Positions 7,903-36,298 of a stretch of DNA of 64,000 nucleotides are shown here, one piece after another. The position numbers were made by a program, and so were the translations under genes. Positions within the stretch are counted from its first letter, which is position 1. Each line of letters begins with the position of its first letter. The notes below the pieces were generated by a model that saw only the letters and a program-made list of their open reading frames with translations, ran no database searches and was not told where the DNA came from. The DNA is from an uncultured Verrucomicrobiae bacterium (lineage in GTDB: Bacteria > Verrucomicrobiota > Verrucomicrobiia > Limisphaerales > JAFGQR01), in NCBI GenBank assembly GCA_963788655.1, contig CAWBHS010000089.1, positions 32,001-96,000 on the forward strand, written 5' to 3'.

Positions 7903-8862
7903 TCAACTTGTTTCTGCTTGTACTGATGGTTGGCTTGTTCCTTTTCGCATAGCATCCAGTCGCGTTTGTAGAGCGGCAAGGTCGTGCAGGTAAATCGCGC
8001 CAATATCGTCGAGAGTCTTCTGGTAGGCGGCGGCGGCCCGTCCTCCGATGAGAATAATTGCTTCGCCCGGCAACAACTGGCGCAATCGCTTGAGCTCGGC
8101 TTCGAGATACGGATCGTCTTCGGGATAGACCAGGCTCAGCGCCACGGCGCGCGCGCGGTTTTGCAGGGCGGCGCCCGCAATCTCCTCGGCCGGCAAGCAT
8201 GGTCCCAGATAAGTCACCCGCCATCCTAGATTGCTGGCGGTGACCGCCACCATGACAGCGCCCAGTTCGTGCAACTGTCCGGGTGGAGTAGTCACCAGCA
8301 ATCGCGGCGAGCTTTCCGGCAGCGTGTAGGCGCGCGCAAAACTCCCCAGAAAGGTTCGAATGACCGCGGTGGCAATATGCTCGTGGGCCACCTTGAGCGT
8401 CCCGCCCTGCCAGCAATCGCCAATTTGCTGAATCAAGGGCACCATGACTTGCTGCAACAAACCGAGCTGACCCAGTTCCGAGGCGCCCCGGCTCAGCACG
8501 TTTTCAAGCCCCTGTCCGTCGAGTCGCTTGATGGCCGCCAGTCCTTCGGCGACATAATCCGGCTTGATGGATTTGCCCGGGGCAGGCGGGGCGGAGGGCT
8601 GGCGATTGACTTGCCGCTCCGCCTTCAGCAACTCGCTCAATTCCGAGTGCGACAACCGGGCGATTTGACCGATGTGATGGCCCGCCTGTGTCGCCTCGTG
8701 AAGCAATTGTAGGCGGGCTATCTCGGCCTCGCTGTAGAGTCGGCGTTTGGTTTCACTCCGCTCGGGCTTCACCGCTCCGTAACGCCGTTCCCACATACGA
8801 ATCAAATGTGGGCTCAGTCCCGTCCGTCGCGCCACAACCTTCATCGAATGTAAATATCCCAT
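7903..8862 (-). CDS. carH: MerR-family regulator with cobalamin-binding domain (CarH/LitR-type photoreceptor)
   Basis: MerR HTH (IRMWERRYG..P.R...RRLY), W-x9-EH (WQGGTLKVAHEH), GQLHELG, VTYLG; divergent from carotenoid genes. Confidence 0.88.
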   Translation of the reverse strand: MGYLHSMKVVARRTGLSPHLIRMWERRYGAVKPERSETKRRLYSEAEIARLQLLHEATQAGHHIGQIARLSHSELSELLKAERQVNRQPSAPPAPGKSIKPDYVAEGLAAIKRLDGQGLENVLSRGASELGQLGLLQQVMVPLIQQIGDCWQGGTLKVAHEHIATAVIRTFLGSFARAYTLPESSPRLLVTTPPGQLHELGAVMVAVTASNLGWRVTYLGPCLPAEEIAGAALQNRARAVALSLVYPEDDPYLEAELKRLRQLLPGEAIILIGGRAAAAYQKTLDDIGAIYLHDLAALQTRLDAMRKGTSQPSVQAETS

Positions 8863-8877
8863 CTAAGTTTATGACTT

Positions 8878-9070
8878 TAGACAAAGCATAAACAAATGGC
8901 AAATAATTAAGAAAATGGTGAATGATCATGGGTTTATCAGGATTTTAGATTTTTCACAATTTATTTACTAACAACACAATACGCAATTAATACGTTGAAA
9001 TCTAGCCTCGGAAGCTTAAAAGTTATACAAAATATTGACAAACAAACAAATATGAGACAAATATAAGACA
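8878..9070. promoter_or_regulatory. AT-rich divergent promoter region with 11-bp-spaced TnnACA direct repeats (putative CarH operators)
   Basis: TAGACA 8878 / TAAACA 8889; TATACA 9024 / TTGACA 9035; ACAAATATGAG-ACAAATATAAG-ACA 9046-9070. Confidence 0.7.
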
Positions 9071-9118
9071 TGAAGGCGCGGTCCTGAGCGGATCATCGGA
9101 ACTGAAAGACAAAACAAC

Positions 9119-10144
9119 ATGCGAACGAAATTAACCAACTGGAAAAACCAAGCGCAATTGAAGACGAGCTTGAGTCGGCAACGCAAGCGGAGCGCGACAA
9201 ACTCGACACCCGCAAAATCTTTGGACAGCGGCTTGCCTCTGACCAAGACCGCCGTTCAGCGGGGGTCTAGCTCCGTATCAACAGAGATTTCTCCGGAAGC
9301 GGAAGCCACGACAGCGCTGAGTCTCTATCTGCGAGAAATCGGCCAAGTGGATTTGCTCACCCTGGCACAGGAAAATGCCTTGGGCCGGCGCATCAAACGG
9401 GGCGACGCGAAAGCGCGTGACCAGATGATCAAAGCGAACCTTCGCCTGGTGGTTCACATCGCGCGCGACTATGAACATTGCGGACTGCCGCTGCTCGATC
9501 TGATCAACGAAGGCAACATCGGGTTGATGAAAGCCGCCGAGCGGTTTGATCCCGCCAAAGGTGCCAAGTTTTCCACCTACGCCTCGCTGTGGATCAAGCA
9601 GGCCATCCGACGGGGCCTGGCCGGCCAAGCCAAGACCATTCGCCTGCCGGTCAATGCCGTGGATACTCTATATCGCCTACGTCATACCGCCGTGCGGCTT
9701 AGCGAAGAACTGGGGCGCGATCCCAGCGACGAAGAACTGGCTCAGGAATTGGGAATATCCACTCGTCGAGTAACCGAATTGAACGTTGCTTCGTTGCCCC
9801 CGGCCTCCCTTGACGCCGCCATTGGAGACGACGACACGAGCCGGTTGATCGAAATCGTGGAGGACGAGCGCGCGGTCATGCCGAGTGCTGATCTGGAGGA
9901 CAAGAATAACCTGCAACTGGTGGCATCGCTCATCCAAACCCTGGAGCCGCGGGAGGCCACCATTCTGCGAATGCGATTTGGTTTGGACGGAGCCGCGGAG
10001 AGGACGTTGGAGGAAATCGGCAAGAAATTCGGCCTGACCCGCGAACGCATTCGCCAACTCCAAAACGAGGCGTTGCGCAAATTGCGCCGGGGCTTTGAGG
10101 ATCTGGACGTTAATCAACAGGACACCGTTGAGGTCGCCGCTTGA
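9119..10144 (+). CDS. RNA polymerase sigma-70 factor, RpoD/SigA family without region 1.1
   Basis: Region 1.2 LYLREIG..LLT; region 2 ANLRLVV, DLINEGNIGLMKAAERFDP.KG.KFSTYA; region 4 TLEEIG..FGLTRERIRQ. Confidence 0.93.
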   Translation: MRTKLTNWKNQAQLKTSLSRQRKRSATNSTPAKSLDSGLPLTKTAVQRGSSSVSTEISPEAEATTALSLYLREIGQVDLLTLAQENALGRRIKRGDAKARDQMIKANLRLVVHIARDYEHCGLPLLDLINEGNIGLMKAAERFDPAKGAKFSTYASLWIKQAIRRGLAGQAKTIRLPVNAVDTLYRLRHTAVRLSEELGRDPSDEELAQELGISTRRVTELNVASLPPASLDAAIGDDDTSRLIEIVEDERAVMPSADLEDKNNLQLVASLIQTLEPREATILRMRFGLDGAAERTLEEIGKKFGLTRERIRQLQNEALRKLRRGFEDLDVNQQDTVEVAA

Positions 10145-10199: not shown

Positions 10200-11736
10200 A
10201 TGACCAAAGAAATCATCATCATTGGCGCCGGTCCCGGCGGACTGGCTTCGGCAGTTTTACTCGCCGCGGCGGGAGCTAAAGTCAAAGTCATCGAACGACT
10301 GCCCCAAGTGGGTGGGCGAACGTCCACCATTGAAGCTCACGGTTACAAATTCGATTTGGGCCCGACCTTCTTTCTTTATCCGCGCGTGCTTGAGGACATC
10401 TTCAAGGCGGCGGGCACCGCGCTGTCAGAGCACGTGGAACTGAAGCGCCTCGACCCACAATACCGGCTGATTTTTGGCGAGGGCGGTCAACTCGATCTGT
10501 ACCCCCCAAATCGAGCAGATGGAGCGATCCATCGCCGCCCTCGCTCCAGTTGATGCGCCGTCGTTTCGGCGGTTCATCCTCGAAAACCGCACCAAGTTGG
10601 AAAAGATGCGGCCGTGTCTCGAGACCCCGTTCCTCGGTTGGAAGGATGTGCTCAACCGCCGGATGCTGGAACTTCTGCCGGTGGTGCGGCCACACCAGTC
10701 GATGGACGACTACCTGAAGCGGTTCTTCAAGGATCCGCGCATTCGCCTGGCTTTTTCCTTTCAGTCCAAATACCTGGGCATGTCGCCGTTCCGGTGCCCG
10801 AGCCTCTTTTCGATTCTTTCCTTTCTGGAATATGAATACGGCGTGTTTCATCCGGTCGGCGGTTGCGGAGCCATTTCCCAGGCCCTGGCCGAAGTGGCCT
10901 CCAGCCTGGGGGTCGAGTTTCGCTTGGATGAACCAGTGGAGGAAATGTTGTTCGCCGGGCGCAAAGCCACGGGCGTCCGCACCCGCGCCGGTGTGCATCG
11001 GGCCGACGCGGTAATTGTGAATGCCGACTTTGCCCGGGCCATGGTGCGGATGGTGCCCAACGAATTGCGCCGCCGGTGGACCGACGAGAAAATCACCAAA
11101 AAGAAATTCTCGTGCTCGACGTTCATGATGTATCTCGGGATCGAAGGCCGCTACGAATTGCCCCATCATTCGATCTTCATATCCAAGGATTATGCCCGCA
11201 ACCTGGACGAAATTGAGAACCAGCACGTGCTGTCATCTGATCCGTCCTTCTACGTGCAAAATGCGAGCGTGACCGATTCCACGCTGGCGCCCCGGAACCA
11301 CAGCGCGCTGTATTTGCTCGCTCCCGTGACTCACCAACATCCCCACGTGGACTGGTCCCGCGAACGTGAACGCTTTCGCGGAGTGCTGCTCGAAAAAATC
11401 GCCCAAGCCGGTTTTACGGACGTTGAAGCCCGCATCCGCTACGAACGGATCATTACCCCCGCCGATTGGGACCAGCGTTACGAAATTTATCGAGGCGCCA
11501 CGTTCAACCTGGCGCACTCACTGGACCAGATGCTGCACCTTCGACCGCGCAATCGGTTCGAGGATCTCGACGGAGTTTATCTCGTTGGCGGCGGCACCCA
11601 CCCGGGGAGTGGATTGCCGGTGATTTTTGAATCCGCTCGCATTACCAGCCGGCTTTTGCTGGACGATTTGGGCGTCACGCCGACCGTGGCTCCCGTCCGG
11701 CTGGAAGCCCAGTCCACCACTCTCCAACCAGCCTGA
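10200..11736 (+). CDS. crtN: phytoene/diapophytoene desaturase, CrtI/CrtN family (frameshift near 10497)
   Basis: IIGAGPGGL FAD motif, FDLGPTF, C-terminal LVGGGTHPGSGLP; two overlapping ORFs joined by one indel. Confidence 0.8.
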
Positions 11737-13256
11737 TGAGTAAAGTGCATTCCATTGGCTCCAATCCACTCGAAGCTCAGGCGTTAGCTTCGCGTGCGAT
11801 GGATTTGGAGGCGCGCGTGAAAACCGCGACTCGTGATGCCCGTCTTGCTCAAGTTCAATGGGCAGATACTTCTTTGAAACAGCGCCTCAAATTGCTTCGG
11901 CGGTTGCGTCATTTGCTGGTGGAACGTGCGAGCGAATTGGCGGCGGTGATCGGTGGTCCGCGCCACCGTCCGCTGGCAGAGACCCTCACCGCGGAAGTCA
12001 TTCCCTTGGTGGAAGCCTGTCGGTTTTTGGAGCGTGAAGCGGCAGCCATCCTGGCGCCTCGTCGAATTGGCCAACGTCATCGTCCGCTGTGGTTGACCGG
12101 AGTTTGGTCCGAGGTTCAGCGGGAAGCCTTGGGCGTGCTGCTCAAGGTGGCACCGTTCAATTATCCGCTTTTCATTCCCGGCGTTGTGACCTTGCAGGCT
12201 CTCGCTGCCGGCAATGCCATCCTGATCAAACCGGGGCATCAGGGCATGGCGGCAGCGAATGCATTGGCGCAACTCGTGAACGCCGCGGGAATCGATGGTC
12301 GATTGTGCCGCGTGCTGCCCGAACACCCGGACTCGGTGCGTTGCGCGGTCGAAGCCGGCGTGGCCAAAGTGTTTGTTACGGGCTCGGCTGCCACCGGCCG
12401 GGCGATTCAAGCAATGCTCGCCGAACATGTCGTGCCTTCCACTTTGGAACTTTCGGGCTGTGATTCCGTCCTCGTGCGCCGCGACGCCAATCTCGACCTG
12501 GTGGCGCAAGGTTTGGCTTTTGGCCTGCGACTGAATGCGGGCGCCACCTGTGTGGCCCCGCGACGCGTTTTCGTGCATACCTCGCGGGCCACGGAACTGG
12601 AAGGGCGGCTCGCTCAATTGCTCGCGGACGAAGCTCCGATTCCAATTCCTTGTCCGATGGCCCAGCGGCTCGTTTCCCTGTTGCGGGCGGCCTTGGCCGA
12701 AGGCGCTCATCTCGTGAGCGGGACGATTGGCGACGACGGTTCGGCGATCGGTCCGCAGGTTCTGGCGGGCGCCCAACCCGGGATGCAACTTCTCCGGGAG
12801 GATGTGTTGGCTCCGGTGCTGGCATTGGTATCGACCACCAATGATACCGAGGCGGTGGCGATGGCTAATGACTGTCCGTATGCCTTGGGAGCTACAATTT
12901 TCAGTGAGGACAAAAGATCTGCCGCCGAGTTGGCGGGGCAAATGCACGCGGGCGTGGTGGTGGTGAACGATGTGATCGTGCCCACGGCCGATCCTCGAGT
13001 GCCCTTTGGGGGACGTAAGCATAGTGGCTTTGGCGTGACCCGCGGCGCCGAAGGGCTTTTGGAAATGACGACGCCCAAAGTCATCACGATCCGGCGCGGT
13101 TCCTGGCGGCCGCACTTTGCGAAACCGGCTCCGGGCGATGAAGTTGTCTTTGCTGATTATCTCACCTTGGCTCACGGCGGTAGTCCCCGGAAACGGGTGC
13201 GCGCACTTCTCAACTTATTGCGGCGCCTTAGCAACAAAAACCACAGAACTTCCTGA
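11736..13256 (+). CDS. aldehyde dehydrogenase, likely carotenoid-aldehyde oxidising (AldH/CrtNc-like)
   Basis: PFNYP, VTGS, LELSG, catalytic Cys in GATCVA, PFGGRKHSGFG; position inside the carotenoid operon. Confidence 0.85.
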   Translation: MSKVHSIGSNPLEAQALASRAMDLEARVKTATRDARLAQVQWADTSLKQRLKLLRRLRHLLVERASELAAVIGGPRHRPLAETLTAEVIPLVEACRFLEREAAAILAPRRIGQRHRPLWLTGVWSEVQREALGVLLKVAPFNYPLFIPGVVTLQALAAGNAILIKPGHQGMAAANALAQLVNAAGIDGRLCRVLPEHPDSVRCAVEAGVAKVFVTGSAATGRAIQAMLAEHVVPSTLELSGCDSVLVRRDANLDLVAQGLAFGLRLNAGATCVAPRRVFVHTSRATELEGRLAQLLADEAPIPIPCPMAQRLVSLLRAALAEGAHLVSGTIGDDGSAIGPQVLAGAQPGMQLLREDVLAPVLALVSTTNDTEAVAMANDCPYALGATIFSEDKRSAAELAGQMHAGVVVVNDVIVPTADPRVPFGGRKHSGFGVTRGAEGLLEMTTPKVITIRRGSWRPHFAKPAPGDEVVFADYLTLAHGGSPRKRVRALLNLLRRLSNKNHRTS

Positions 13257-13271
13257 ACGAAAAACAACATT

Positions 13272-14840
13272 ATGACGGCAGAACTTTCACAAAAGATCGG
13301 GGTCATCGGCGGTGGGCTCGGCGGATTAGCGGCCGCCTGCACTTTGGCGGCCCGGGGTCACGAAGTGGTCCTGTTTGAAATGAATTCCTGGCTCGGCGGC
13401 AAAGCCGCTTTGTGGGAAGCGGACGGATTCCGCTTCGACATGGGACCGACCATTCTAACGCTACCGTCAGTGTTGCGACGCATTTTTGCGGAAGCCAACG
13501 AATCCATGCGCGACTACCTCGAACTGATTCCGCTTGATCCGCAGTGGCGCAGCTTTTTCGAGGACGGCTCCACCCTGGACCTGGTGGCGGACGTTCGCGA
13601 GATGGGTACCGCGCTCGATGCATTTTCGCCGGGCAAATCCTTAAGTGCCCGTTACACCCGGTTCATGGCGCTGGCCAAAAAACTGCACGACCTCTCGAAT
13701 CGCTATTTCTTCTATCGTTCGATTGGTGGCCTGCGGGACATGTACAACGCCCGGGCCACGTTTCGGGCCGGCACGTTGCGGGATGTGTTGACCATGCGCA
13801 TGGGCGGCACGGTTGCCGGCACGATCCGTTCCTTCATTCCCGACGCCCGCGTCGCGCAGATGCTCGATCATTTTACCCAGTACGTTGGTTCTGCTCCGGA
13901 CGCTTCGCCGGCGGTTCTCTGTGGCATTGCCGATATGCAGACGGCGGAAGGCGTTTGGTATCCGCGGGGCGGCACTCGGGCTGTGCCCGACGCGCTTGGC
14001 AAACTGGCGGTCAACCTCGGTGTGCATATCCGCACCCGGACGCCCATCGCGCGCATTCTAACCGCCAATGGGCGGGTGAGCGGAGTGGAAACGGCCAACG
14101 GAGAAACCATTCCACTTGCGGCGGTGGTTTCGAATAGCGACTCGGTGCGCACCCATCGCGAACTGCTGACGGGAGACGTTGCGCAGCGTTTCCTCAACCG
14201 TCGTCCGTACGAACCCGCCTGTTCCGGGGTGGTGTTGTACTTGGGATTGAACCGTCGGTATGAACAATTGCGGCACCACAATTTTGTGTTCTCCCAATCG
14301 CCGGAGGAAGAGTTTGATTACATCTATCGCCGCGGCGAACCGGCGCCCGATCCCACCTGTTATGTGTGCGCGCCGGCGCAGACCGAACCCGAGGTGGCGC
14401 CGCCCGGAGGCGAAGCTTTGTATGTGCTGGTCCACACCCCGTATTTGCGGCCGCACCACGAATGGCCGCGAATGCTGCCGGCCTACCGCCGCACCATTTT
14501 GGAAAAACTTAAACGGACCGCCGGTTTACGGGATATCGAGCAGCGCATCGTTACCGAAAAGGTGTTGACGCCGCAGGACATTCACGAGCGCTACCACGTG
14601 TTGAATGGCGCGATCTATGGCTTGGCGAGTCACGGGCGTTTCCTGGGCGCCTTCAAACCGGCCAATCGCAGTCCCGATCTGCGGGGATTGTATCTGGCCG
14701 GCGGTTCGGCCCATCCCGGCCCCGGCATGCCGATGGTGATGATGTCGGGTTGGATCGCTGCCGACGCGTTGGATCAGGATGGGGTGGCCACGCCGTCACG
14801 ACAATCGTCGCCCCGAACCACTGAAATGGTGGCTGCATAA
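13272..14840 (+). CDS. crtP: second CrtI-family FAD enzyme, likely diapolycopene/diaponeurosporene oxygenase (CrtP/CrtNb-like)
   Basis: VIGGGLGGL, FDMGPTILT, LAGGSAHPGPGMP. The crtP assignment is from context only. Confidence 0.7.
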   Translation: MTAELSQKIGVIGGGLGGLAAACTLAARGHEVVLFEMNSWLGGKAALWEADGFRFDMGPTILTLPSVLRRIFAEANESMRDYLELIPLDPQWRSFFEDGSTLDLVADVREMGTALDAFSPGKSLSARYTRFMALAKKLHDLSNRYFFYRSIGGLRDMYNARATFRAGTLRDVLTMRMGGTVAGTIRSFIPDARVAQMLDHFTQYVGSAPDASPAVLCGIADMQTAEGVWYPRGGTRAVPDALGKLAVNLGVHIRTRTPIARILTANGRVSGVETANGETIPLAAVVSNSDSVRTHRELLTGDVAQRFLNRRPYEPACSGVVLYLGLNRRYEQLRHHNFVFSQSPEEEFDYIYRRGEPAPDPTCYVCAPAQTEPEVAPPGGEALYVLVHTPYLRPHHEWPRMLPAYRRTILEKLKRTAGLRDIEQRIVTEKVLTPQDIHERYHVLNGAIYGLASHGRFLGAFKPANRSPDLRGLYLAGGSAHPGPGMPMVMMSGWIAADALDQDGVATPSRQSSPRTTEMVAA

Positions 14841-14851
14841 AATCTCTAGCG

Positions 14852-15739
14852 ATGCCCCCTTCGCAACTCCAGATCAATTCGGGCACAGCCGGAGCGTTGC
14901 GCGCGCGGCCACTGGTCCCATTTGCTACGACCAGGCCCATAGGACGTTCGAGCGCGACCTTGGCTGTGCCTTCAGTTTCCCCCTGGTTATTCAAGGGCTT
15001 TGCCCTTTATGCCCGCGCTTACATCAAAAAGCATTTTCACGCGCTTCGGCTTTGTCGTGCGGGGCAACCGCCCGCGGAGGACGACGCGCCGCTGGTGGTG
15101 TATGCGAATCATGCCTCCTGGTGGGATCCGCTGGTGGGCCTGGTGCTCGGGCAAACGTTCTTTCCCCGGCGCAACCTGTTCGCCCCCATGGCGGCTGAGT
15201 CTCTGGAAAAGTATCGAATGTTGGCCCGGTTGGGCTTCTTCGGCGTTGAACAGAACTCCGTCCGCGGGGCGGCCACGTTCCTGCGAACCAGTCTAAAGAT
15301 TCTTCGCTGGCCGAGTGCGTCGCTCTGGATCACCCCGCAGGGCCAATTCGGCGATCCGCGCGACCGACCGATCCGCTTCAAGCCGGGGCTTGGACAACTG
15401 GCGCAGCGGGTGAATCGCGCGCTCTTCGTCCCGTTGGCCATCGAGTATCCCTTTTGGGAAGAGCGCACTCCCGAAGTCTTGGCTGCTTTTGGCGAACCGG
15501 TGCTCGTCGAAGCCTCCCATATCCGACGCGCGGATGCCAAATACTGGACCGCGCTCTTTGAGCAGAAATTATCAGCCACGCTGGATCGGCTGGCGCGGGC
15601 ATCGCAACGCCGCATTCCGGAGGAATTTACGACGATACTGCGCGGACGAGCCGGGGTGGGCCTTCTTTACGATGGGTGGCGCAAGCTGCGCGCACGATTG
15701 CGCGGAGAAACATTCGCCAATGAACACGGCGCCAAATGA
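14852..15739 (+). CDS. PlsC-like (lysophospholipid) acyltransferase
   Basis: NHASWWD (HX4D), ITPQG, FKPG motifs. Confidence 0.85.
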   Translation: MPPSQLQINSGTAGALRARPLVPFATTRPIGRSSATLAVPSVSPWLFKGFALYARAYIKKHFHALRLCRAGQPPAEDDAPLVVYANHASWWDPLVGLVLGQTFFPRRNLFAPMAAESLEKYRMLARLGFFGVEQNSVRGAATFLRTSLKILRWPSASLWITPQGQFGDPRDRPIRFKPGLGQLAQRVNRALFVPLAIEYPFWEERTPEVLAAFGEPVLVEASHIRRADAKYWTALFEQKLSATLDRLARASQRRIPEEFTTILRGRAGVGLLYDGWRKLRARLRGETFANEHGAK

Positions 15740-16974
15740 ATCTCAACACGCTCTCTTTGATTGCCCTGGTTTTGGCGGGGATTCCCTGCCTGCTGTTCCT
15801 CGTGAATCTGCTGGCCTATCGCCAACCGGCCGGCGGCGTTGGAGTATTGCTGCCAAACGCGATTTTGAAACCGCGCTTTCATGTATCCGAAACCAGCGCG
15901 CCGGTCATCGTGCCGCAATCCATTTCCGTGCTCATTCCCGCGCGCAATGAAGAAACGAATATTCGCGCCACGCTGGCGGCGGTGCTTGCCAATCGCGGCG
16001 TCGAGTTCGAGGTCATCGTGATGGATGATCATTCGACCGATCTAACCGCGTCAATTGTCGCTGAGATTGCCGCGCGCGATGAGCGGGTGTTGCTCGTTCC
16101 GGCTCCGGAGTTGCCCGCTGGCTGGTGCGGCAAACCGCACGCCTGCTGGCAATTGGCGAAACATGCGCGGCACGGTCTATTCCTGTTTATCGACGCTGAT
16201 GTGCGCCTGGCTCCCGATGCCCTGGCACGCATGAGTTCGTTCATGAATACTGGCCGGGCCGACCTGGTCAGCGGCGTGCCGCGCCAGGAACTGGGAACAT
16301 TTTCTGAACGCTTGCTGCTGCCTCTGATTCACTTTCTTTTGCTCGGGTACCTGCCGATGCATTTCATGCGCTGGTCCAAATCCACCGGCTTCGGGACCGG
16401 CTGTGGCCAACTCTTCCTGGCCCGGGCCGAAGCCTATCGCCACTGTGGAGGTCACTCGACGGTGCGCGGGACGTTGCACGACGGGTTAAAGTTGCCGAAG
16501 GCGTTTCGTCGCGCCGGTTTTCGCACCGACTTGTTCGATGCCACTCCTCTGGCCGGCTGCCGGATGTATCGCCGCAATGCCGAGGTCTGGCAAGGTTTGG
16601 CCAAGAACGCCACCGAAGGGCTGGCCGCACCAGCGACAATTGCTCCGATGACCTTACTGCTGCTGGGAGGACAAGTGTTGCCGTTTTCATTGCTGGGGAT
16701 GGCGCCGTTTCTATCACCGGTAGCGTTGCTCATGGCGGTCACGGCGGCCCTGAGTTCGCTGTTGCCTCGTCTGATCGCCGTGCCGAAATTCAAACAACCC
16801 ATTGGCAGCGCACTGCTGCATCCCTTCGCCATTCTGGCCTTGCTGATCATTCAGTGGACCGCCTTCATCCGCTGGCTGGCCGGGAAACCGGCCACTTGGA
16901 AGGGGCGCGATTACTGTCCCTCGTTGCCGGTTGTTCACCTGACAAAGTCCATTCCGAAACCACGAAAAGCCTGA
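15736..16974 (+). CDS. glycosyltransferase family 2, CrtQ-like
   Basis: LIPARNEE, DDHSTD, GWCGK, FIDAD; N- and C-terminal TM segments. Confidence 0.85.
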   Translation: MNLNTLSLIALVLAGIPCLLFLVNLLAYRQPAGGVGVLLPNAILKPRFHVSETSAPVIVPQSISVLIPARNEETNIRATLAAVLANRGVEFEVIVMDDHSTDLTASIVAEIAARDERVLLVPAPELPAGWCGKPHACWQLAKHARHGLFLFIDADVRLAPDALARMSSFMNTGRADLVSGVPRQELGTFSERLLLPLIHFLLLGYLPMHFMRWSKSTGFGTGCGQLFLARAEAYRHCGGHSTVRGTLHDGLKLPKAFRRAGFRTDLFDATPLAGCRMYRRNAEVWQGLAKNATEGLAAPATIAPMTLLLLGGQVLPFSLLGMAPFLSPVALLMAVTAALSSLLPRLIAVPKFKQPIGSALLHPFAILALLIIQWTAFIRWLAGKPATWKGRDYCPSLPVVHLTKSIPKPRKA

Positions 16975-16988
16975 TTACACCTTGTTCC

Positions 16989-17558
16989 ATGAATTACCTT
17001 TTACGCTTGCTAAAACTTCGTTCAGCTTCGATGACTGGGATGTGCTTACTGCACTTTCTCGGATGCGCAGCCTTTGCCGGCCAAGCCAAACCACCTCCGG
17101 CCGACACGACGGCGGCGCACCCGACCAAAGTCGCTCCGTTCGCCCTGGCTGACCAATACGATCATGTTCACCGGTTCACGCTGCCACTGGCGAAAATTAC
17201 CGTGCTGACGGTGGCCGACAAGAAGGGTTCCCGTCACATCGAAGAGTGGGTGCATCCGCTCAAGCAGCGCTACAACCTGCGAATTGACATTGTGGGCGTG
17301 GCCGACCTCCGAGGAGTGCCGGGCCTGTTTCATGGCCGGGTGGTGAAGTCGTTCAAGCAGAGCCAGCGCTACCCAGTGATGTTGGATTGGAAGGGGGAAG
17401 TCGCCGAACAACTCGATTGTGCCAAAGGTCAGGCGAATGTCTTCGTGCTGGATCGTCAGGGACGCATCGTAGCCCGAAGGGCTGGCCCCGCAACTCCAGA
17501 CTCGCTGAAGGAACTTTTCAGCGCCATTGACCGATCAGTGGTTCCGGAGACCCCATGA
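16989..17558 (+). CDS. exported thioredoxin-fold/YtfJ-like protein
   Basis: Signal peptide, FALADQY, YPVMLDW, VFVLDRQGRIV; no CxxC. Confidence 0.6.
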   Translation: MNYLLRLLKLRSASMTGMCLLHFLGCAAFAGQAKPPPADTTAAHPTKVAPFALADQYDHVHRFTLPLAKITVLTVADKKGSRHIEEWVHPLKQRYNLRIDIVGVADLRGVPGLFHGRVVKSFKQSQRYPVMLDWKGEVAEQLDCAKGQANVFVLDRQGRIVARRAGPATPDSLKELFSAIDRSVVPETP

Positions 17559-17723: not shown

Positions 17724-20700
17724 ATGAAACGTCGTATCATTTCCTCCCTGGTGATTCTCTTCCTATGTAGCCCCGCTGTGCTTCCGTTGTTCGCGGCGGA
17801 TACTATCGTCATTTCGGAATTCATGGCCAATAACAATGGGATCCTTGCGGACGAGGACGGCGACTTTTCGGATTGGATTGAACTCCATAATCCCACGGCC
17901 ACGGTCGTCGAGCTGGAAGGCTATTACCTGAGCGATGATCCGGGCCTGCTGACCAAGTGGGCCTTCCCGGCGGTCAGCCTGTCGCCGGACGGCTATTTGG
18001 TGGTGTTCGCATCCGGCAAGAACCGCTCCAATCCGGGCGGCCAGTTGCACACGAGTTTTCAATTGAATACTGATGGCGAGTTTCTGGCGCTGGTGTTGCC
18101 GGATGGGCACACGCTGGCCAGCGTGTTCAATCCGGAGTATCCACCACAACGCGAGGACGTGGCCTACGGCGTGGCCCAACAACCCGTGTCCATCGCACTT
18201 ATCGCCAGCTCGGTGCCGCAGATTCTGGTGCCGGCCAATGCCGGCGAATTACCGGCGAATTGGAGCGCGGTCGATTTCCAACCCGACGGCAATTGGATTA
18301 ATGGCAGCGCCCCGGCGGCTATTGGCTTCGATACCGATCAACCAACGGCCACGCCCGTAAACGTCGCTCCCGGTGGCACAGCCGTGCAAAGCACCACCTC
18401 CGGCGGTAACACCGCCAACCTGGCCACCGATGGCAGCACGGCAAATTTCACCCACACCCTGTCCGCTGACACTTCGCCATTTTGGCAGGTTACACTGGCC
18501 AGTGAAACCGCCGTGTATCGTGTCGTATTGCGCAATCGCACGAGTTGCTGCCAGTCCCGGTTGCGCGATATCACCGTGCAAATTCTTTCGGCGGACGGCA
18601 ACGCCACCAACTACAACTCTTCCCTGCTCAACGCGGAGAATGTGGGTTACACCTATCCGGCTGGCCCGGCTTCGATTGAAGTCGATTTGACCGCGCTGGC
18701 GGGCGGCCCGGTGTTGGGCCAGGTGATACGGGTGTTGCGCGCGCCGGACCCGGACCTTTCCGGCAGTGGTGGCCAGGGCGGTGCTGACGAAGTTGCCGTG
18801 TTGTCGTTGGCGGAAGTTGAGGTCCATGGCGTGCCCACGGCTACTGAAGTGAATCTGGCCCGCACCGGCAGTCCGGCGCCCACCGCGTCCCAATCGTCCA
18901 CTTTGAGCACTTACACTCCGGACCTCGCCATCAATGGCAACCTCGGTGATTTCACGCATACCGCCAGCGCGGACTCCAATCCCACTTGGACCCTCAATCT
19001 GGGGCGCCGCTCCGTGGTCAATTCCGTGACGATTCACAACCGTGATGACTGCTGCGGATCGCGATTGCGCGACCTCACCGTGCAAATTCTCGACACCGAC
19101 GGTTCGACCGCGGTTTATACTTCACCCTTGTTGAATCCGGAGAATGCCGGTTACAGTTTTCCGAACGGCCCAGACCATCTCGATGTTGTTCCTCCCGCGC
19201 CGGTGCTCGGCCAATACGTGCGCATCCGGCGGACCCCGGACCCCGATCTTTCCGGCACTGGTGGCCAGGGTAATACTGACGAAGCCGGTGTCTTAGCCCT
19301 GGGCGAAGTGATCGTGCTGGGTTTGGATGTGAACGGCTATCGTCCGTTTATCCGCACCGACCTCGAGAACCAAATGCTCGGCAACAATGCTTCGGCGTTT
19401 GTGCGCCTACCCTTTACGGTGGATGATCCGTCGGTGCTGGATGAACTCACGTTGCGGTTGCGCTACGACGACGGATTTATTGCCTATCTTAATGGGGTGA
19501 AAATCGCCGAACGTAACGCGCCCGCCACGCCCGCCTGGAATTCGGCTGCCACCGTTGATCGCGACCTCGCCAGCGGCATCCTACCGGAAACGATTTCGTT
19601 GACTGACTACCTGCCGCAACTAATGGCCGGCGTCAACGTGCTGGCAATTCAGGCGATGAACTCGAGCGTCAGTGACGGCAATTTTCTACTCCAACCGGAA
19701 TTGACCGGCGCGCAGATTGAAGAGAGTCCGTATGCCTATCTGGTGGACGCCACACCCGGTACCCGCAACGAAACGGACTATTACTTTGGCGACGTGGCGG
19801 ACACCCAGTTCAGCGTGGACCGCGGATTCTTCGATGCACCGTTTACATTGGAGATCACTTCCGCGACGCCCGATGCACAGATCTATTATTCCTTGGACGG
19901 CAGTGAGCCCAGCGCCAGCCGGGGCCTGCTTTATACCGAACCGTTGACCATCACGAACACCACCATCGTCCGCGCCCGCGCGTTCAAGCCGGATCTCAAG
20001 CCAACAGATATTGACACGGAGACTTACATCTTTCTGGACGATGTCATTCACCAGGCGCCCACCGGGGCGGCTCCGCCCAATTTCCCCGCGTCATGGGGCC
20101 GGAACCGCGTCGATTACGGCATGGACCCAACCGTCGTGTCCAAATACTCCCTGGCCGAATGGCACGAGGCACTGACGCAAATCCCGACCATGTCGATCGT
20201 CACCGAGGTGGAGAACCTTTTTGATCCGGTGACGGGCATCTACGCCAACGCGGATGGGCACGGCGAAGACTGGGAACGGCCCAGTTCGATTGAGTTGATC
20301 GATCCGCACGGCACCCCGCAAGGCCAGTTCCAGGAGAACTGCGGGCTGCGCATTCGGGGTGGCTACAGCCGCAACACCGACTTCGTGAAACATTCCCTGC
20401 GCGTCTTTTTCCGGCGCGATTACGGAGCGGCCAAACTGCACTACCCACTCTTCGAAAACGAGGGCGCCGACACCTTTGACACGTTTGATTTGCGCACCAG
20501 CCAAAATTACGCCTGGCCGCGGGAAACCAGCTTGAGCAACGGTCAAAACGATACGCTGGTCCGCGAAGTGTTTTGCCGCGAAACCCTGGGCAAGATGGGC
20601 CAACCCTACCGTCGCTCACGCTACTATCACCTTTATCTGAATGGACAGTATTGGGGTATCTATATGACCGATGAGCGACCGGAGGCTTCCTACGGCGCCA

Positions 20701-23700
20701 CCTACCTCGGCGGTAACAAGGATGATTATGACGTGGTGAAATGTGCCAATCACATCGGCAATTTCGTGACCGAAGCCACGGATGGCAACTTCGGTACCTG
20801 GACCAATTTGTTTACCATGGGGCTAGACATGCTCGACGACAGCGGCAATGCCAATTATTTCCGCATGCTGGGCCGCAATCCGGACGGCACCCGCAATCCC
20901 GCGCTGCCCGTGATGGTCGATGCCGATAACCTGATCAATTACATGCTGGGGATTTTTTACACGGGCGACGGCGATGCCACGCTGTCGTCTTTCCTGGGAA
21001 ATACCGAACCAAACAATTGGTTTGGTATGAAGAACCGCAATAATCCCGACCAGGGTTTCTTGTTCTTCAACAGTGATTGCGAGCACACCCTGGGCGCCCC
21101 CAGCAGTCAGGTGGACCGCACCGGACCGTGGAAGGACATTGCGGGATCGAATGTCCGCAATTTCACCTATTCCAACCCGCAGTACCTGCACGAAGAATTG
21201 ATGCTCAATCCCGAGTACCGCCTCCTTTTTGCCGACCACGTGCAACGCCATTTCTTCAATGGCGGTGTGCTCACTCCGGAAGCATGCACGAATCGCTTCT
21301 TGCGCTGGGCGGACCAGATCAACCAAGCCATCCGCGCCTACGAAGCCCGCTGGGGCGACGCGAATAACGCCCACGTCAAATATTCCGCGACCGATTGGAC
21401 CAATCGCATTAACACCATCGTCAACTCCTGGTTCCCCAACCGCACGGCCACGGTGCTCCAGCAGCTCAAAGTCGATAACCTGTATCCCGCCATTAGTGCG
21501 CCGGAATTCAGTCAGCTTGGCGGCGACATTGCCGAAGGCTTCAACTTGACCATGACCAATCCCAACGCGAGCGGCGCTATTTACTACACGCTCGACGGCA
21601 CGGACCCGCGCCAGGTGGGCGGAACCGTCAATCCCACGGCCGCAGCGTACAGCAGCCCGATTGCGTTGAACGCCAGCACGCGCGTGAAAGCCCGGGTGCT
21701 CAACGGTTCAACCTGGAGCGCCCTGGTGGAAGCCGATTTTGCCATCCCCGGCATCGTGCCGTTGCGCATCACCGAATTGATGTACCACCCGGCCCCGGTG
21801 AGCGCAACCGAGGCGGCGGCGGGATTCAGCAACGCCGACGACTTCGAATTCATCGAACTGCGCAACGTCGGCGCGATCACCATCAACCTGGCCGGCATCC
21901 AATTCGTTGACGGGATCACCTTCACCTTCCCCAGCGGCAGCTTGGCGCCCGGCGAACGTATCCTGGTGGTGAAGAATCTGGCCGCCTTCAACCTGCGCTA
22001 CGGACCCGTGAGTCGTGTGGCCGGTTATTATAGCGGCAACCTGAACAATGCCGGCGAGCATCTCCGGCTCCAGGACGCGGCGGGGCGGGCCATCCTGGAT
22101 TTCTCCTACGCGGACGGGTGGTATCCCATCACGGACGGATTTGGTTTCTCGTTGGTGGCCGTGGATGAGAACGCGCCAGCTTCGACTTGGGGCAGCAAGT
22201 CCAGTTGGCAGTCGGGCAGCAACCTGGGCGGTTCGCCCGGCGCGGCCAATCCTCCGTCACCGGGAATCCCCTTCGTCGTCATCAACGAAGTGCTCACCCG
22301 GCCGGCGGCGGGCGGCAAGGTCAGCGTTGAACTCGCCAACTTGAGCGACAGTCCGGCTGATGTTGGTAACTGGTGGCTGACGGATGATTTTCGCAATCCC
22401 TGGAAGTTCCGTTTGCCGGCGAACACCATCATTCCCGTGGGCGGTTTTGTGGTATTCAATGAAGATGATTTCGGCCCGACCGCATTGGGAATGAATGCTA
22501 TACAGTTGAGCAGCGCCGGCAGCGAAATTCGCTTGTTCAGCGCGGACGCCAATGGGGATTTCACCGGCTACGTCCAAGGCTGGGACTTTGGACCGGCGGA
22601 AGCTGACGTGAGCTTTGGCCGGTACGTGATTAGCACCGGCGCGGACCATCTGGTGGCGCAAACCGCCGTGACGCTGGATGCCACGAATGCCGAACCGCGG
22701 ATTGGCCCGGTGGTGATCAGCGAGATCATGTATCGTCCACCCGACCTGGGCATGAACGACAACAGCCGGGATGAATACCTCGAACTGTTGAACACTTCCC
22801 CGAATCCGGTGCCGTTGTTTGAACCGGCTGCGCCGGTTTACACGTGGCGGGTCACGGGCGGTGTGGATTTCGCCTTGCCACCCGATCTGACTCTGGCGGC
22901 CGGCGAATACTTGTTGGTGGTCAGTTTCAATCCGGCGACTGACCCGGCATTGCTGGCCGATTTCCGCGTCCGCTATTCCGTACCCGCCAACGTTTGCATC
23001 CTGGGACCCTACAGCGGCAAGCTCGACAACTCCGGGGAAAGCGTGGAATTGCGAACGGCAATCCGGTTGCCGACCAGTCTGCCGGCTTGGGCGATAGCGG
23101 ACAAGGTTTCCTACGAAGACGCCGACCCGTGGCCGGGCGGCGCCGACGGTTACGGACCCTCGCTGCAACGTGTGGACGTGGCTGCGTACGGCAATGATCC
23201 AGTGAATTGGGTGGCGGTGGGACCGCGTCCCGGCCGGACCTTTGTCGGCGGCACGCTGCCGGTGATCACAATCCAGCCCACGGACCAAGCAGCGGTGGAG
23301 CAAACGAGCGCCACGTTTAGTGTCGAGGTGGAAGACAGCAGTGCCGTTACGTACCAGTGGCGTTTCGAAGGCCACAATATTGCGGATGCCACCAACACAA
23401 CGTATTCGATTGAGCCTGTGCAGCCCGCGGATGAGGGCTTGTATTCGGTGGTGATTCTGGGTGCGGGTGGCGCCGTGGTCAGCAGCAACGCCGCGCTCAC
23501 CGTGCTCTCATTGCCCAAAATTATCGTCCACCCGGAAAGCCAAACCGTGGATGCTGGCGGCACGGCGATGCTCTCCGTCGTCGCCTCGGGCACGGGTTCT
23601 CTGAGCTACCAATGGCGGCGCAATGGGATCGACGTTCCCGGCGCGACCAGCGCCTCGCTAACCGTGACGGATCTCCAACTCGACGTGAATGACGGGATCT

Positions 23701-24978
23701 ACACGGTGGTGGTTACCGACGCGGTGGGATCGCGCGAGAGCCATCCCGCGCTGGTGGTCTTGCTCCTGCCGCCGGCCGTTGTGGAAGGCCCCTTTCCGAC
23801 CAATCAGGTCGTGGCCTCGGGCAGCACCTTCACCATCAGTCTGACGGTTCGGGGCACGTTGCCGATCGGCTATTATTGGCGCCTCGGGAACGGGTATTAT
23901 AACTTCGAATCCGGAGGCGGGTACACCTATGCCGAGACGAACTCGGCGTACGTCAGCACGAGCGTGCTGGTGATTACCAACGCGCAGAAGGCCTTACACG
24001 AGAATAAATATCGCGTGGGCATCAGCAACAGTGTTCAGACCTACCAAACTGCCAGTGCCTATGCCTATGTGACCGTCATTGACGGCCCGGCCATTACGCT
24101 GCAGCCGACCAATCAATCGGCCGCGCTGGGTGCCCCGGTTACCTTCCATGCCGGCGCGAGCGGCGAAGCGCCGTTGACGTTCCAATGGTGGCACAATGAC
24201 GCTCCGATCGCCGGCGCCACCGGCACCAGTTACAGCCTCAACAGCGTGCAGGCCAGCGACGCCGGCGCGTACACGTTTGTGGCGAGCAATCCGGCCGCCA
24301 GCGCCACGAGCCACGTGGCGTATCTGACGCTGCCCGTGGCTCCGACCATTGTCACGCAACCGGCGGATCAAGCGGTGCATGTCTGCTCGAATGCGGTGTT
24401 CACGGTCGAAGCCAGCGGGGCGCCCTTGAGCTACCAATGGTGGTTCAATGCGACCAATCGCCTGGCCAATGAAACCAATGCCAGCCTGGTGATCGTTCAG
24501 CCGGGCCTGGCCGATGAGGGCCGTTACTCGGTGGTGGTCAGCAATCTCTTTGGCGCGACGCCGAGTGACGCCGCCACGTTGACCCTGCTCGACGGGGACA
24601 GCGATGGTGACGGCATGAGCGACACCTGGGAACTGGCGCACGGCTTGAATCCTTGCGATGCGTCGGACCGCGATCTCGACCCGGACCAGGACGGGCGCAC
24701 CAACTGGCAGGAATTTGTTAGCGGCACCGACCCGGGCAGCAACGCCAGCGTTCTGCGGGTGAGTTTGGTGGGTGACAGCGGGGGAGCGCGCATTCAATTC
24801 GAAGCGGCGCCCAATGTCGGGTACACGATCCAGGTACCGGACCAGCTTGACGGAAGGGCCTTGGCTGAAATTGACCGACATCGAACCCGCAGCGACTCCG
24901 CCGTCGGTGGACTTCCTGGATCCCAACGTAGCGGCCGATGGCGGACGGTTCTATCGCATCGTCACGCCCAGGCAGTAA
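17724..24978 (+). CDS. giant secreted protein: lamin-tail domains, two F-type-lectin/discoidin domains, CotH kinase, Ig repeats, Asp-rich Ca-binding repeat (frameshift near 24833)
   Basis: ISEFMANN/DWIELHN, NRDDCCGSRL, LRIRGGYSR..YLNGQYWGIY, ITELMYHP, YQW Ig repeats, DSDGDGMSD. True C-terminus ...RFYRIVTPRQ* lies in ORF 24772..24978. Confidence 0.85.
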
Positions 24979-25131
24979 TAGGCAGAACCTCTTCGGTTCG
25001 GAGTCCCGGCTTTAGCCGGTCAAAGCATGCATCCAAGAGCGGGCACCCAACGGTTAGGCCCCCGGTTCTGATGAATCATACAACGGCGGTTGATTAGGCA
25101 CCGAGAACGCGAAGATTTTGGACGGTTCATT

Positions 25132-31870: not shown

Positions 31871-31927
31871 GGGCGCCGATTAAACGGGGAAGCCTGACAG
31901 AACGCAAAGCCGAAAATGAACTGGCAA

Positions 31928-31968
31928 AATGACTGACAACCAAGGACCAAGCCCCAGAGAATGACCAA
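31928..31968 (+). repeat. heptamer-array arm, left boundary of the RM/kinase island
   Basis: AATGACTGACAACCAAGGACCAAGCCCCAGAGAATGACCAA; 31/41 identical to the reverse complement of 36579-36619. Confidence 0.65.
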
Positions 31969-32019
31969 GGGCGAAGGCGCAAGTTCCATCACGGCGTAAC
32001 GCGCCTCCCAATGCGCCAC

Positions 32020-32907
32020 GCTTGAGCAAGCTGCGTAAATCGTCGCGGTCTTTGGCCTGCACCGGCGTCTGGCGCAGCAACTCTTTGCAAAACGAGAATG
32101 TGTCGAAAAGCTGGTCGTCCAAATCGTTACGGTCGGTCAACACGACAACGGTAGGATTCTCCATCGCCGGGTGTTGCACGATCTTTCCGGCGTAGAACAC
32201 CATCGAAAGACTTTTACCGCTCCCTTGCGTATGCCAGATGACGCCTGCGCGACGGTCGCCAATATTTTCCGAGGTAGGAGACGAGGTGACGAGGCTCTGA
32301 CTAATTTCCGATTTTGAAGTTCGAGTCTCCTCACGTCGTCTCCTACTGGATTCAGAGGAAACACCCGCCGCCCGCAAGGTCGTTTCCACCGCTTTATTGA
32401 CGGCGTGGAACTGATGATAGCCCGCCAGCTTCTTCACGACCTTTTCGCCGTCGTCCTCGAATACGATGAAATTGCGGATTAAGTCCAACAAGCGGTGATT
32501 GTCGAACACGCCTTTGAGCAGCGTTTCCAGTTGCAACGAACCGGGCGGGACAAGCTCCTTTCCCGTAATGGTGCGCCACGTCATGAACCGCTCCCAATCA
32601 GACGTGACCGTGCCGAGCCGCGCTTCGTGGCCATCGGAAACGCGCGATTGTTCTCGATGAGCGTGGGATAATTGACCAAACGCAGTTTGCGCAACGTTTC
32701 CTGCAACCCCTCCGGCGGAATCTTGGAATTCAAATCCTCCAGCTTGGTTTGCAGCCGGTCGAAAAGAAAAACCTGCTGGTAATCCGCCCGCTCCGCCGCT
32801 GATTCACCCGGCGCGATGGTGAGGCCAGATAAAACCTCGCAACCAAGCTCACGAAGCCTGTCGAGCGAGCATTCTTCAACGACCGACTCCGTGATCCCTT
32901 TGCTCAT
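32020..32907 (-). pseudogene. hsdR: type I restriction subunit R remnant (internal deletion and C-terminal truncation)
   Basis: ITESVVE..., LIENNRAF fused to SDGHEARLG..FMTWRT; YHQFHAV; WHTQGSGKS (Walker A); TDRNDLDDQL; similarity ends after RSLLK. Confidence 0.85.
32274..32346. repeat. GTAG palindromic element inserted in frame in hsdR
   Basis: GTAGGAGACGAGGTGACGAGGCTC ... GAGTCTCCTCACGTCGTCTCCTAC (21/24). Confidence 0.8.
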
Positions 32908-33773
32908 TTCTTCTTTGGTTTGTCGTGCAACACCATCTCCGACAACTCGTGGTTGCCGATTTCTTCGGCAACGTGCTCCGCGAAGTGTTCCAGTTCATTC
33001 TCGCGGACAAGTTGTTTATGCCCCGGAATCTTGCTCAACAGATGAAACGCGTTTTCAAACGCCTTCTTGGTCTCATCCTGGCGCGGCTCGCCCAGCAGGA
33101 AGTGAATCTTGAATTTCTCCCGTGCATCATGCAGCGCAACTCCGCGGCCAAGCCATTTATTCGCCTTCTCACGGATGCTGCCCGGATCAACGAGGTCAAA
33201 CGAAACCGGCTCGTAGAGATGCCAGACGTCATTCTTCCACGCGAAGCGAAAATCGTATTGGTAGTCCTTCGTCTCGATTTTCTTTTCCGCCAGCTTTTCC
33301 GCCGTCTTGCCCAGCCTCGCTTTGAACGGCTTTGCAATTTCCTCGTCGCTCCGGCTCACCTGTTCCGCGCCGGCGACGTATCGCTCCACCAACCGCTTGA
33401 ACAATTCGTCCATTGTCTTCGCCACGTCCTCCGTGAAACCGCCGCCCTGTTCCGACCATTGCAGCGAACTGTCGTCCGGTGGCAGCACTTGCCGGACGAT
33501 TTCCTTGAGCGCAGTCACCGGTGGAACTTCGAGACCGTCGCGGATTTCGGCGGCGATTTCGTCGAACCGGTTCGCCATGTAACGCATCAAGGCCCGGTAG
33601 TGCAGATGGTCAATCTTCAAAAAGATCGCGTTCAACCGTCCGTAGGACGTGGTGAAGCGGGCTTCCAGATACCGTTGCTCGGGCGAATAGAGCACAACCC
33701 CGATGTTGGCGAATTCGCCGGTCACAACGTCGTGCAGATAACGCAGTGTGATGGTGCTGTAGGTTGGTTTCAT
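32904..33773 (-). CDS. DUF3037-domain protein
   Basis: Y..LRY..D...GEFANIGVVL N-terminal signature; start overlaps the kinase stop (ATGA). Confidence 0.8.
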   Translation of the reverse strand: MKPTYSTITLRYLHDVVTGEFANIGVVLYSPEQRYLEARFTTSYGRLNAIFLKIDHLHYRALMRYMANRFDEIAAEIRDGLEVPPVTALKEIVRQVLPPDDSSLQWSEQGGGFTEDVAKTMDELFKRLVERYVAGAEQVSRSDEEIAKPFKARLGKTAEKLAEKKIETKDYQYDFRFAWKNDVWHLYEPVSFDLVDPGSIREKANKWLGRGVALHDAREKFKIHFLLGEPRQDETKKAFENAFHLLSKIPGHKQLVRENELEHFAEHVAEEIGNHELSEMVLHDKPKKK

Positions 33774-34574
33774 CGCAGTATGTGTTTTACGTAATTTACC
33801 AAATTGTCCCGGTGCTGGCGAGCCTCTCGGAGATACGCGGCGACCTGCTCGCCAAAGTCGCTCTGTCCCAGCCACTCCGCCGGAACAGCGTCAAGATAGC
33901 CTTGAATCCGCTTGTCAGACAGTGCGCCGAGCTTTTCCTTGAATGGGCCAAGATTCAGCCGCCCGCCGCGCAAGTCTGCCATAGAAAACGTGCTGTTCCA
34001 GAAACCGGAAACCATTCCCCTGACTGGCTGCGGCCCAGGGCTTTGGCGCTCCACCGATAATCGGCACGGACAAGAATGAGAACGCCTGCTCATGGTCGTA
34101 AACGCCGAGCCGGTCCGAACGCGCCCAAAGGTTGGGATTCACCGCCCGCCGGTCCGCATTCTGGATCAACGTGTCGAAGGCAAAAATATCCGCCGCTTGA
34201 TCCCGTTGCGCGCCGACCGGGTTGCGGCCGGGCGGCCACGTCGTAAATCCCGCGCCAAGGTGAACCGAACCAAAATTCAAGCCGGGACTGCCTTTAACCA
34301 ATTTCACCAGTTCGCGTTCGGCTATGACAGCTTCAAAACCAACCGGCACGTCCACGACCGCTGCTTGCGGGACTTGCAGTCCAAGGTTGTCTGCCAATTG
34401 CGCGGTGAGCAATTCGGCGGTTTGCGCCGTCCCGGTCATCTCGCGCCCGCGAAACTTCACCACCACCTCAAACGTGTCACCGCCCGCGTTCTCGCAACCC
34501 AGCAACAGCGGATGATTCCGCCCTGTGGACATCGCCTTGATGAATTGCGTGGCTGTGAGCTCCAGGACTTCCAT
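33770..34574 (-). CDS. HipA-like/PI3K-fold kinase (frameshift near 33975)
   Basis: STGRNHP loop, VVKF, AELL, FDTLIQNADR...NPNL, YDHEQAF; C-terminus continues in ORF 33770..34093. Confidence 0.82.
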
Positions 34575-34576
34575 AG

Positions 34577-35638: not shown

Positions 35639-36298
35639 ACGCGGCCTTTGTAGGGTTCAAGCATGGCGACGAGCACCTGCACGACGCATTGCGGGGTGTA
35701 GAACTCGCCGCCGCCCTTGCCTTCCGCGCTGGCGAATTTGCCGAGAAAGTATTCATAGACGCGCCCGAGCACGTCCTTGGACTTCGCCGCCGATTCGTTG
35801 AAGCCGATGTTGCTGATGATGTCCACGAGTCCGCCGAGCCGGACTTTGTCGAGGCTGGGCCGGGCGTAATCGCGCGGCAGCACGCCTTTGAGCGTGGGAT
35901 TCTCGCGCTCAATCGCGCCCATCGCGTCGTCAATGACCTTGCCAATCTCCGGCGACTTGGCTTTGGCCTTGATGGTGTGCCAGCGGGCTTCGGGCGGCAG
36001 CCAGAAGACATTCGCGGCCAGATATTCGTCGCGGTTCTCGGCGGCGTCGGCGCGTTGCGGTTCGTCCTTGATGAACCATTCGCTCTTGGGATCGGAGAAG
36101 CCGAACAGCAGTTGCTCGCGTTTTTCCTCGAAGGCGTCGGAGATGTATTTCAGGAAGATGAGGCCGAGGCAGACGTGCTTGTATTCCGAGGCGTCCATGT
36201 GCCCGCGCATCTTGTCGGCGGCGGCCCAGAGCTGGGCTTCAAAGTTCGAGGGCGGAGCCGTTGCCGTTGGGCTTTTTCTGAGGTCGTGCTTTCGCCAT
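35617..36298 (-). pseudogene. hsdM: type I RM methyltransferase subunit M, N-terminal part only
   Basis: [37 protein letters not shown]; stops before DPxxGSGG and NPPF. Confidence 0.85.

Follow-up and report, generated by a model that had tools for sequence, protein, structure and literature searches.

To our knowledge, CarH has been described mainly as a local switch of carotenoid synthesis, relayed at most by an ECF sigma factor. The relay of CarH in Thermus is reportedly LdrP, of the CRP/FNR family, whereas at the locus analysed here it would be a sigma factor. This locus lies in the window, the whole stretch of 64,000 nucleotides that was analysed, from the genome of an uncultured Verrucomicrobiae bacterium (G000; 8.96 Mb, 86% complete).

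In Streptomyces coelicolor and S. griseus, the gene for LitR, an AdoB12-dependent class I LitR/CarH protein, is divergent from the sigma gene litS, and the output is carotenoid (PMC11519972, in part); both features are shared by the window. Both litR and litS promoters are repressed in the dark, and predicted operators are found at both promoters in the window. LitS, however, belongs to the ECF sigmas and recognises a dedicated promoter, that of crtE, whereas the window sigma is a full-length, group-2-like sigma-70. Unlike in LitR-LitS, the window sigma is co-oriented with the crt genes under one predicted CarH operator, and relatives appear to drive crt without a sigma. An earlier note on this DNA had named the ECF sigmas LitS and CarQ among the partners of CarH; LitS is a true precedent, whereas CarQ is assigned to the CarA pathway of Myxococcus, which does not depend on B12 (PMC9304148, in part).

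The CarH proteins of Thermus thermophilus, Bacillus megaterium and myxobacteria (3whp, 5c8d; PMC9304148, in part) share with the window protein the domain order, the recognition helix RxWERRY, the upper-ligand motif Wx9EH and the lower His. Their published operators, tandem 11-bp nnnnTnnACAn repeats with the −35 element inside one repeat, are of the kind predicted here. The cyanobacterial group 2 sigmas SigB and SigD are likewise non-primary and RpoD-like, and are light-induced; they belong to phototrophs and to another sigma lineage, and the available part of the source mentions no CarH-type repressor (PMC8875361). For the output, the C30 squalene route of Planctopirus limnophila has the same two desaturases, aldH, glycosyltransferase and acyltransferase in a cluster that lacks a synthase, and CrtN has been reported in Verrucomicrobia (PMC9907078, in part). 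The Planctopirus acyltransferase is of the PF18927 CrtO family and that of the window is PF01553; unlike in Planctopirus, the window cluster is led by a sigma and a predicted CarH operator, and its C30 product is predicted from the genes.

The full-text literature searched, which takes in few subscription papers and leaves supplements aside, holds no description of CarH with a non-ECF sigma, nor of CarH in Verrucomicrobiota, in agreement with the earlier claim that the wiring is undescribed in this phylum; nor is it described in the available parts of PMC7064467, PMC9758184 and PMC8717448. Judged by the genomes compared below, the carH–sigma–crt wiring is real and conserved, and would work like LitR-LitS with a non-ECF sigma.

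The carH–sigma–carotenoid locus

The features of the locus are as follows.

7903..8862, minus strand: carH/litR-type repressor gene, 319 aa (domain profiles, PDB matches, motif alignment)
8874..8895, plus strand: predicted CarH operator 1, a tandem pair of 11-bp TnnACA repeats that lies 12 bp before the carH start; 24.0 bits, second in the genome
9020..9071, plus strand: predicted CarH operator 2 at the sigma/crt promoter, two full repeats with pseudo-repeats at 9050 and 9061; 27.7 bits, first in the genome
9119..10144, plus strand: group-2-like sigma-70, 341 aa (Pfam Sigma70 r1.2, r2, r3 and r4; no r1.1 match)
10200..11736, plus strand: crtI-family desaturase 1, likely crtN (profiles), split by a one-base frameshift near 10500
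11736..13256, plus strand: aldehyde dehydrogenase, likely aldH (Pfam; same position in relatives)
13272..14840, plus strand: crtI-family desaturase 2, likely crtP (TIGR02734, 400 bits, over the cut-off)
14852..15739, plus strand: PF01553 acyltransferase, likely for carotenoid ester formation (Pfam)
15736..16974, plus strand: GT2 glycosyltransferase, likely crtQ-like (Pfam, NCBIfam)
16854..17558, plus strand: unannotated ORF of uncertain start, last in the cluster (no Pfam match; homologues in L039, L043, L044 and L150)

The arrangement proposed in the earlier note, a CarH-type gene divergent from a sigma-headed operon, is present: carH (minus strand) and the sigma gene (plus strand) face away from each other across 256 bp of 68% AT. 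The repressor carries MerR_1, B12-binding_2 and B12-binding domains (Pfam), that is, a MerR helix-turn-helix, a four-helix cap and a Rossmann B12-binding domain in the order of class I LitR/CarH, and the solved structures closest to it are those of Thermus CarH (3whp and 5c8d; E 4e-29). Its nearest named relative is from a Limisphaerales genome (54%), and the other named matches are mostly from Verrucomicrobiota, so that the order to which G000 belongs is probably Limisphaerales.

Motifs were taken as defined in PMC9304148 (in part), where Wx9EH sets CarH apart from CarA. The recognition helix reads RMWERRY (residues 22–28). Since Wx9EH is intact (W151, E161 and H162), the window repressor is of the CarH and not of the CarA type. 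R22, W24, E25, R27, W151, E161, H162, H198 and G201 were invariant in 52/52 aligned CarH homologues. The lower-ligand motif, D/ExHx2G...SxT/V...GG, retains H198, G201, S243, V245 and G273–G274, and has Gln at its first position, which is Gln in 32 and Glu in 20 of the 52 homologues. Aligned with Thermus CarH, the window protein has no His after the Trp, and Leu and Cys stand at the Arg–Asp interface pair. The NCBIfam CarH equivalog model NF052513 gave 128 bits against a cut-off of 400, which was not reached; by its motifs the protein is a family member, and by this model not an equivalog.

For the sigma, the earlier description as a sigma-70 with regions 1.2 to 4 and no acidic region 1.1, group-2-like and not ECF, was confirmed by Pfam, by the composition of the N-terminal tail and by the NCBIfam models. 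In place of region 1.1 there is a 64-aa tail with 11 basic and 4 acidic residues; regions 1.2 and 3 are present, and the best models are RpoD/RpoS-type, with scores that reach neither cut-off (RpoD, 301 against 555 bits; RpoS, 277 against 379 bits). Leu replaces the first Trp of the W-dyad. A separate primary RpoD is encoded in G000 by a 626-aa frame on contig C26, in which a long insert separates region 1.2 from region 2, and other short sigmas are found on C6 and C99, the latter being the core short sigma. The basic tail was considered as a special mark of the CarH-linked sigma and rejected, since core copies have a basic tail too.

Operators were scored with a matrix built from 35 sites, all from relatives, with the window left out; this matrix ranks both window sites first and second across the 8.96-Mb genome. 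Tandem TnnACA pairs number two in the intergenic region against a shuffle mean of 0.024 (1 of 5000 dinucleotide shuffles reached two; P=0.0002), whereas the count of bare TnnACA is not significant (5 against 2.7 expected, P=0.11). The full-repeat pair of operator 2 occupies 9020–9041, and its second repeat holds TTGACA at 9035–9040. Operator 1 would likely serve autorepression of carH. Among fetched copies, tandem TnnACA repeats precede 8/12 CarH-adjacent sigmas and 2/41 unlinked paralogues; both of these paralogues sit in CarH genomes (G039, where the sigma and carH are at the ends of different contigs, and G040). Other searches performed less well. A consensus promoter scan of the region yielded 3 sites where 1.6 were expected, the TTGACA site not being among them, a strict operator pattern had zero matches in 5 genomes, and a looser one had many matches in coding regions and missed G001, G017, G439 and the carH site of G343.

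The first carotenoid gene begins 55 bp past the sigma stop codon, and the earlier claim of carotenoid genes directly behind the sigma was borne out by two crtI-family desaturases, an aldehyde dehydrogenase, an acyltransferase and a GT2 glycosyltransferase, which together form a predicted C30-carotenoid operon. The names crtN, aldH and crtP were given by gene order. The unannotated ORF closes the cluster in the window and in the four relatives listed, and two loci of the squalene/phytoene-synthase family are found elsewhere in G000. Frameshifts were detected in 8 of 58 G000 genes tested against relatives, including those for a topoisomerase and for the C99 core short sigma, and the photolyase gene on C80 is likewise split, which points to an indel-prone assembly. 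As desaturase 1 is uninterrupted in 8/8 relatives compared and frameshifts are this frequent in G000, the one-base frameshift of crtN is probably an assembly error; among the public contig pieces listed, which are short, none spans this position.

Proposed switch and conservation of the pairing

In the proposed mechanism, AdoB12-loaded CarH would occupy the predicted 11-bp repeats in the dark and block both divergent promoters. The first step, the identity of CarH and the placement of its operators, is read directly in the sequence. Secondly, AdoB12 would be bound and photolysis of its Co–C bond would free the promoters, as with CarH of Thermus, Bacillus and Myxococcus. Thirdly, the sigma and the C30-carotenoid enzymes would be made from one transcript, as suggested by the 55-bp gap and the abutting genes. 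We are confident of these three steps. Fourthly, the crt genes would require derepression only and not the sigma, since the same operator appears to drive crtN directly in sigma-less relatives. Fifthly, the sigma would work in trans, as a copy of the core short sigma that is gated by light and has a similar promoter preference, and once released would redirect RNA polymerase to further stress genes. The whole chain, from light and release of CarH through the sigma and crt to wider stress genes, is favoured with moderate confidence; since the recognition helices of the sigma differ little from those of the core short sigma, the simplest reading is a light-gated duplicate with a wider stress regulon.

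Full-length CarH was found in 18 of the 41 genomes first searched (19 before a weak partial match in G020 was removed) and in 110/251 sampled genomes of the order. One hundred of these 110 were examined; the ten left out had partial or weak matches or contig-end positions, and not every second copy was included. A linkage that is not conserved in relatives, named in the earlier note as evidence against its reading, is not what was found: a sigma faces carH in 58/100 CarH genomes (11/18 in the first set and 47/82 in the further set, where 5 loci lie at contig ends and are uninformative), and in about 4 of every 10 CarH genomes of the order carH has no sigma beside it. At the 47 sigma loci of the further set, the sigma is the first gene in 45 and follows a fasciclin gene in the other 2. 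None of the 47 scores below 16.6 bits by the operator matrix, a value reached by 13/7406 upstream regions of G000. The other partners of carH in this set were fasciclin (14), crtN (13), SDR (6) and amine oxidase (1) genes, with operator scores as high as at the sigma loci. A sigma faces carH in 2/24 named-record loci. In a sample of the phylum outside the order, CarH was present in 8/300 genomes and never faced a sigma; a 165-aa gene facing carH there was considered as an ECF sigma and rejected, being a fasciclin protein. In another phylum, CarH was found in 9/81 genomes, with a non-ECF sigma opposite carH in 3/9 (L326/G552, L328/G616 and L334/G602), the G616 copy having an internal stop. These three sigmas group with those of their own phylum in a quick tree with long branches, which suggests independent recruitment.

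Downstream of the sigma, crtN was found at 16, photolyase at 6 and neither at 25 of the 47 loci with enough flank; behind some sigmas there are only housekeeping genes (serA, acpS, a TPR protein). The sigma is also kept in four of the 13 genomes with an operator-led sigma where no crtI-family gene was found (G008, G030, G032 and G039). Since it is retained both there and at the 25 loci without crtN or photolyase, the sigma would have a role beyond its own operon. This argues against its being only a local amplifier that boosts its own promoter after CarH release and has no wider regulon, as does the purifying selection under which the sigma stands even so: by simple counting, dN/dS is 0.09 for the G000/G001 pair, with dS near saturation, and 0.09–0.28 in eight other pairs, with dS near saturation for the distant ones. 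Such local amplification, which we consider unlikely, would agree with the position of the sigma as first gene under the same operator and promoter that drives crtN directly in G037, G012 and G021, and with the retention of region 4.2 residues typical of TTGACA readers. It would also agree with the failure of a search by eye to find targets in trans: upstream of unlinked crtN and photolyase genes, no sigma-specific promoter motif was seen, only generic TTG-N17-xAxxxT promoters.

The reading of the earlier note, a light-derepressed sigma that could drive a wider photoprotection regulon, is borne out in part. CarH most likely represses the sigma gene, the predicted operator lying over a TTGACA −35 element; for the wider regulon, the search by eye gave no sigma-specific motif, and crtN appears to stand under CarH directly in sigma-less relatives. 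CarH operators are found upstream of crtN in G012, G021, G010 (directly before an unlinked crtN) and the sigma-less G037, whose crtN promoter aligns in register with the window sigma/crt promoter. They also lie directly before Fe/Mn superoxide dismutase genes (G014 and G436) and a beta-propeller gene (G010), and part of a wider light response would thus be direct. No CarH operator was found within 350 nt of the G000 photolyase or of the unlinked crtN of G001, G014 and G017, which leaves room for control of these genes by the sigma. The Fe/Mn superoxide dismutase operators are at L286:1498 (G436) and L293:1521 (G014), both as tandem repeats (29 and 23 bits, respectively) and in one genus, and make this gene a candidate direct CarH target.

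The wider stress response driven through light has to be weighed against a switch whose main input is cobalamin supply or oxidative B12 damage: in a B12 scavenger, apo-CarH would leave the operator when AdoB12 is scarce, and the stress sigma would be turned on. G000 encodes the PduO adenosyltransferase, MetH and a cobalamin riboswitch, and CobS and methylmalonyl-CoA mutase were not found in this 86% complete genome; as CobS was not found, the switch may be gated by B12 supply to the same degree as by light. The Gln in place of Asp/Glu in the B12 motif and the several metagenome loci at which carH is paired with a nucleoside-transporter-like gene and not with photoprotection genes are in line with such an input. 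We nevertheless judge it improbable as the main one, because Wx9EH, the photoreceptor hallmark, is intact in 52/52 homologues, because the cargo genes at the CarH loci of the order are carotenoid, photolyase, fasciclin, SOD and cfa/ufa-like genes, and because CarH co-occurs with photolyase (17/18 CarH genomes against 6/23 others, kin not being independent). For crtI-family genes the counts are 14/18 against 2/23, with the same dependence among kin. PduO was also considered as a co-occurrence marker of CarH and rejected, being present in 57/61 genomes.

Evolution of the CarH-associated sigma

RpoD-family sigmas were found in all 41 genomes, most of which have a conserved short core copy. By comparison of these sequences, the CarH-associated sigma is a faster-evolving paralogue of the conserved short sigma of the order (mean identity 61% among 15 CarH-associated sigmas against 82% among 24 core copies), which the dN/dS values above place under purifying selection. 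In region 4.2, the last position of RERxRQL is Leu in all 59 readable CarH-associated sigmas, Ile in 24/24 core copies and Leu in 4/16 other unlinked sigmas. In one tree, all 23 CarH-associated rows and four unlinked paralogues fell outside the branch of core and other sigmas (SH-aLRT 95), and in two other trees the G030/G032 pair was placed elsewhere; a single origin of the CarH-associated sigmas is plausible. An exclusive clade of operator-led sigmas was rejected (p-AU 0.017).

The first Trp of the W-dyad, replaced by Leu, Phe or Tyr in 20/61 CarH-associated sigmas and in 0/24 core copies, accelerates the opening of promoters, and alternative sigmas do not conserve it (PMC4593229, in part). 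Its loss, together with the lower identity among the light copies, would fit a sigma dedicated to a narrow, LitS-like class of promoters, those of crt and photolyase among them, which differs from the class read by the core short sigma. Two thirds of the CarH-associated sigmas keep the dyad, however, the recognition helices of regions 2.4 and 4.2 of the window sigma closely resemble those of the core short sigma, and no distinct motif precedes unlinked crtN or phr; we regard this specialisation as very unlikely.

For the light-gated duplicate of the core short sigma, a broader proposal is offered tentatively and may well not hold in full. The order would keep a light-gated copy of a general stress sigma, so that in these non-phototrophic Verrucomicrobiota one B12 photoreceptor flips a whole sigma regulon instead of a pigment operon; a second phylum would have come to this wiring independently, by way of its own short sigma; and the melting Trp, missing from a third of the copies after repeated losses, would point to a narrowing promoter range. 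If true, a full-length RpoD-like sigma gated by CarH would enable light to reprogramme transcription on a broad scale in a little-studied, non-phototrophic lineage, in which CarH occurs in 110/251 sampled genomes and is paired with a sigma in over half of those examined. With the predicted operator located to the single base, the idea lends itself to direct tests; the carH–sigma pair is also a candidate two-gene optogenetic amplifier.

Other carH loci and neighbouring genes

A second carH is present in G000 as a 3′ fragment (G000:C50:44500-46772, minus strand; 55% over 87 aa), its 5′ part being replaced by unrelated DNA. Behind it are SRPBCC and DUF2867 genes, a block that trails carH in several relatives. 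In metagenome loci L023, L024, L026, L029, L031, L032 and L034, carH faces the nucleoside-transporter-like (Gate) gene, often with a racemase gene and with no photoprotection gene, which is possibly another use of the switch. At L045:9936-17036 (G030) and L132:5425-8917 (G064), carH adjoins a cfa/DUF1365/amine-oxidase cluster that resembles furan-fatty-acid genes; such genes are light-induced under class II LitR in Pseudomonas (PMC9758184, in part). Stand-alone PAS-domain proteins of about 164 aa are encoded in light-related clusters at L051:845-1336 (G021) and L146:5578-6066 (G011), and are possible short LOV proteins.

In the window, the carotenoid cluster is followed directly by a gene (17724-25097, plus strand) for a 2457-aa protein with lamin-tail, CotH kinase, F5/8 and Ig domains. 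Short pieces of a type I restriction-modification system (hsdM, 197 aa; hsdS; hsdR, 234 aa) lie at 31880-36210 on the minus strand, with genes for a HipA-like kinase and a DUF3037 protein between them. In the upstream regions of G000, xAxxxT hexamers peak 6 nt before the ATG, where they number 320 (elsewhere about 190 per offset), with TT at −35/−34, and many transcripts are likely leaderless. A search of sequencing runs listed no RNA run and gave two soil DNA runs at a share of 0.05.
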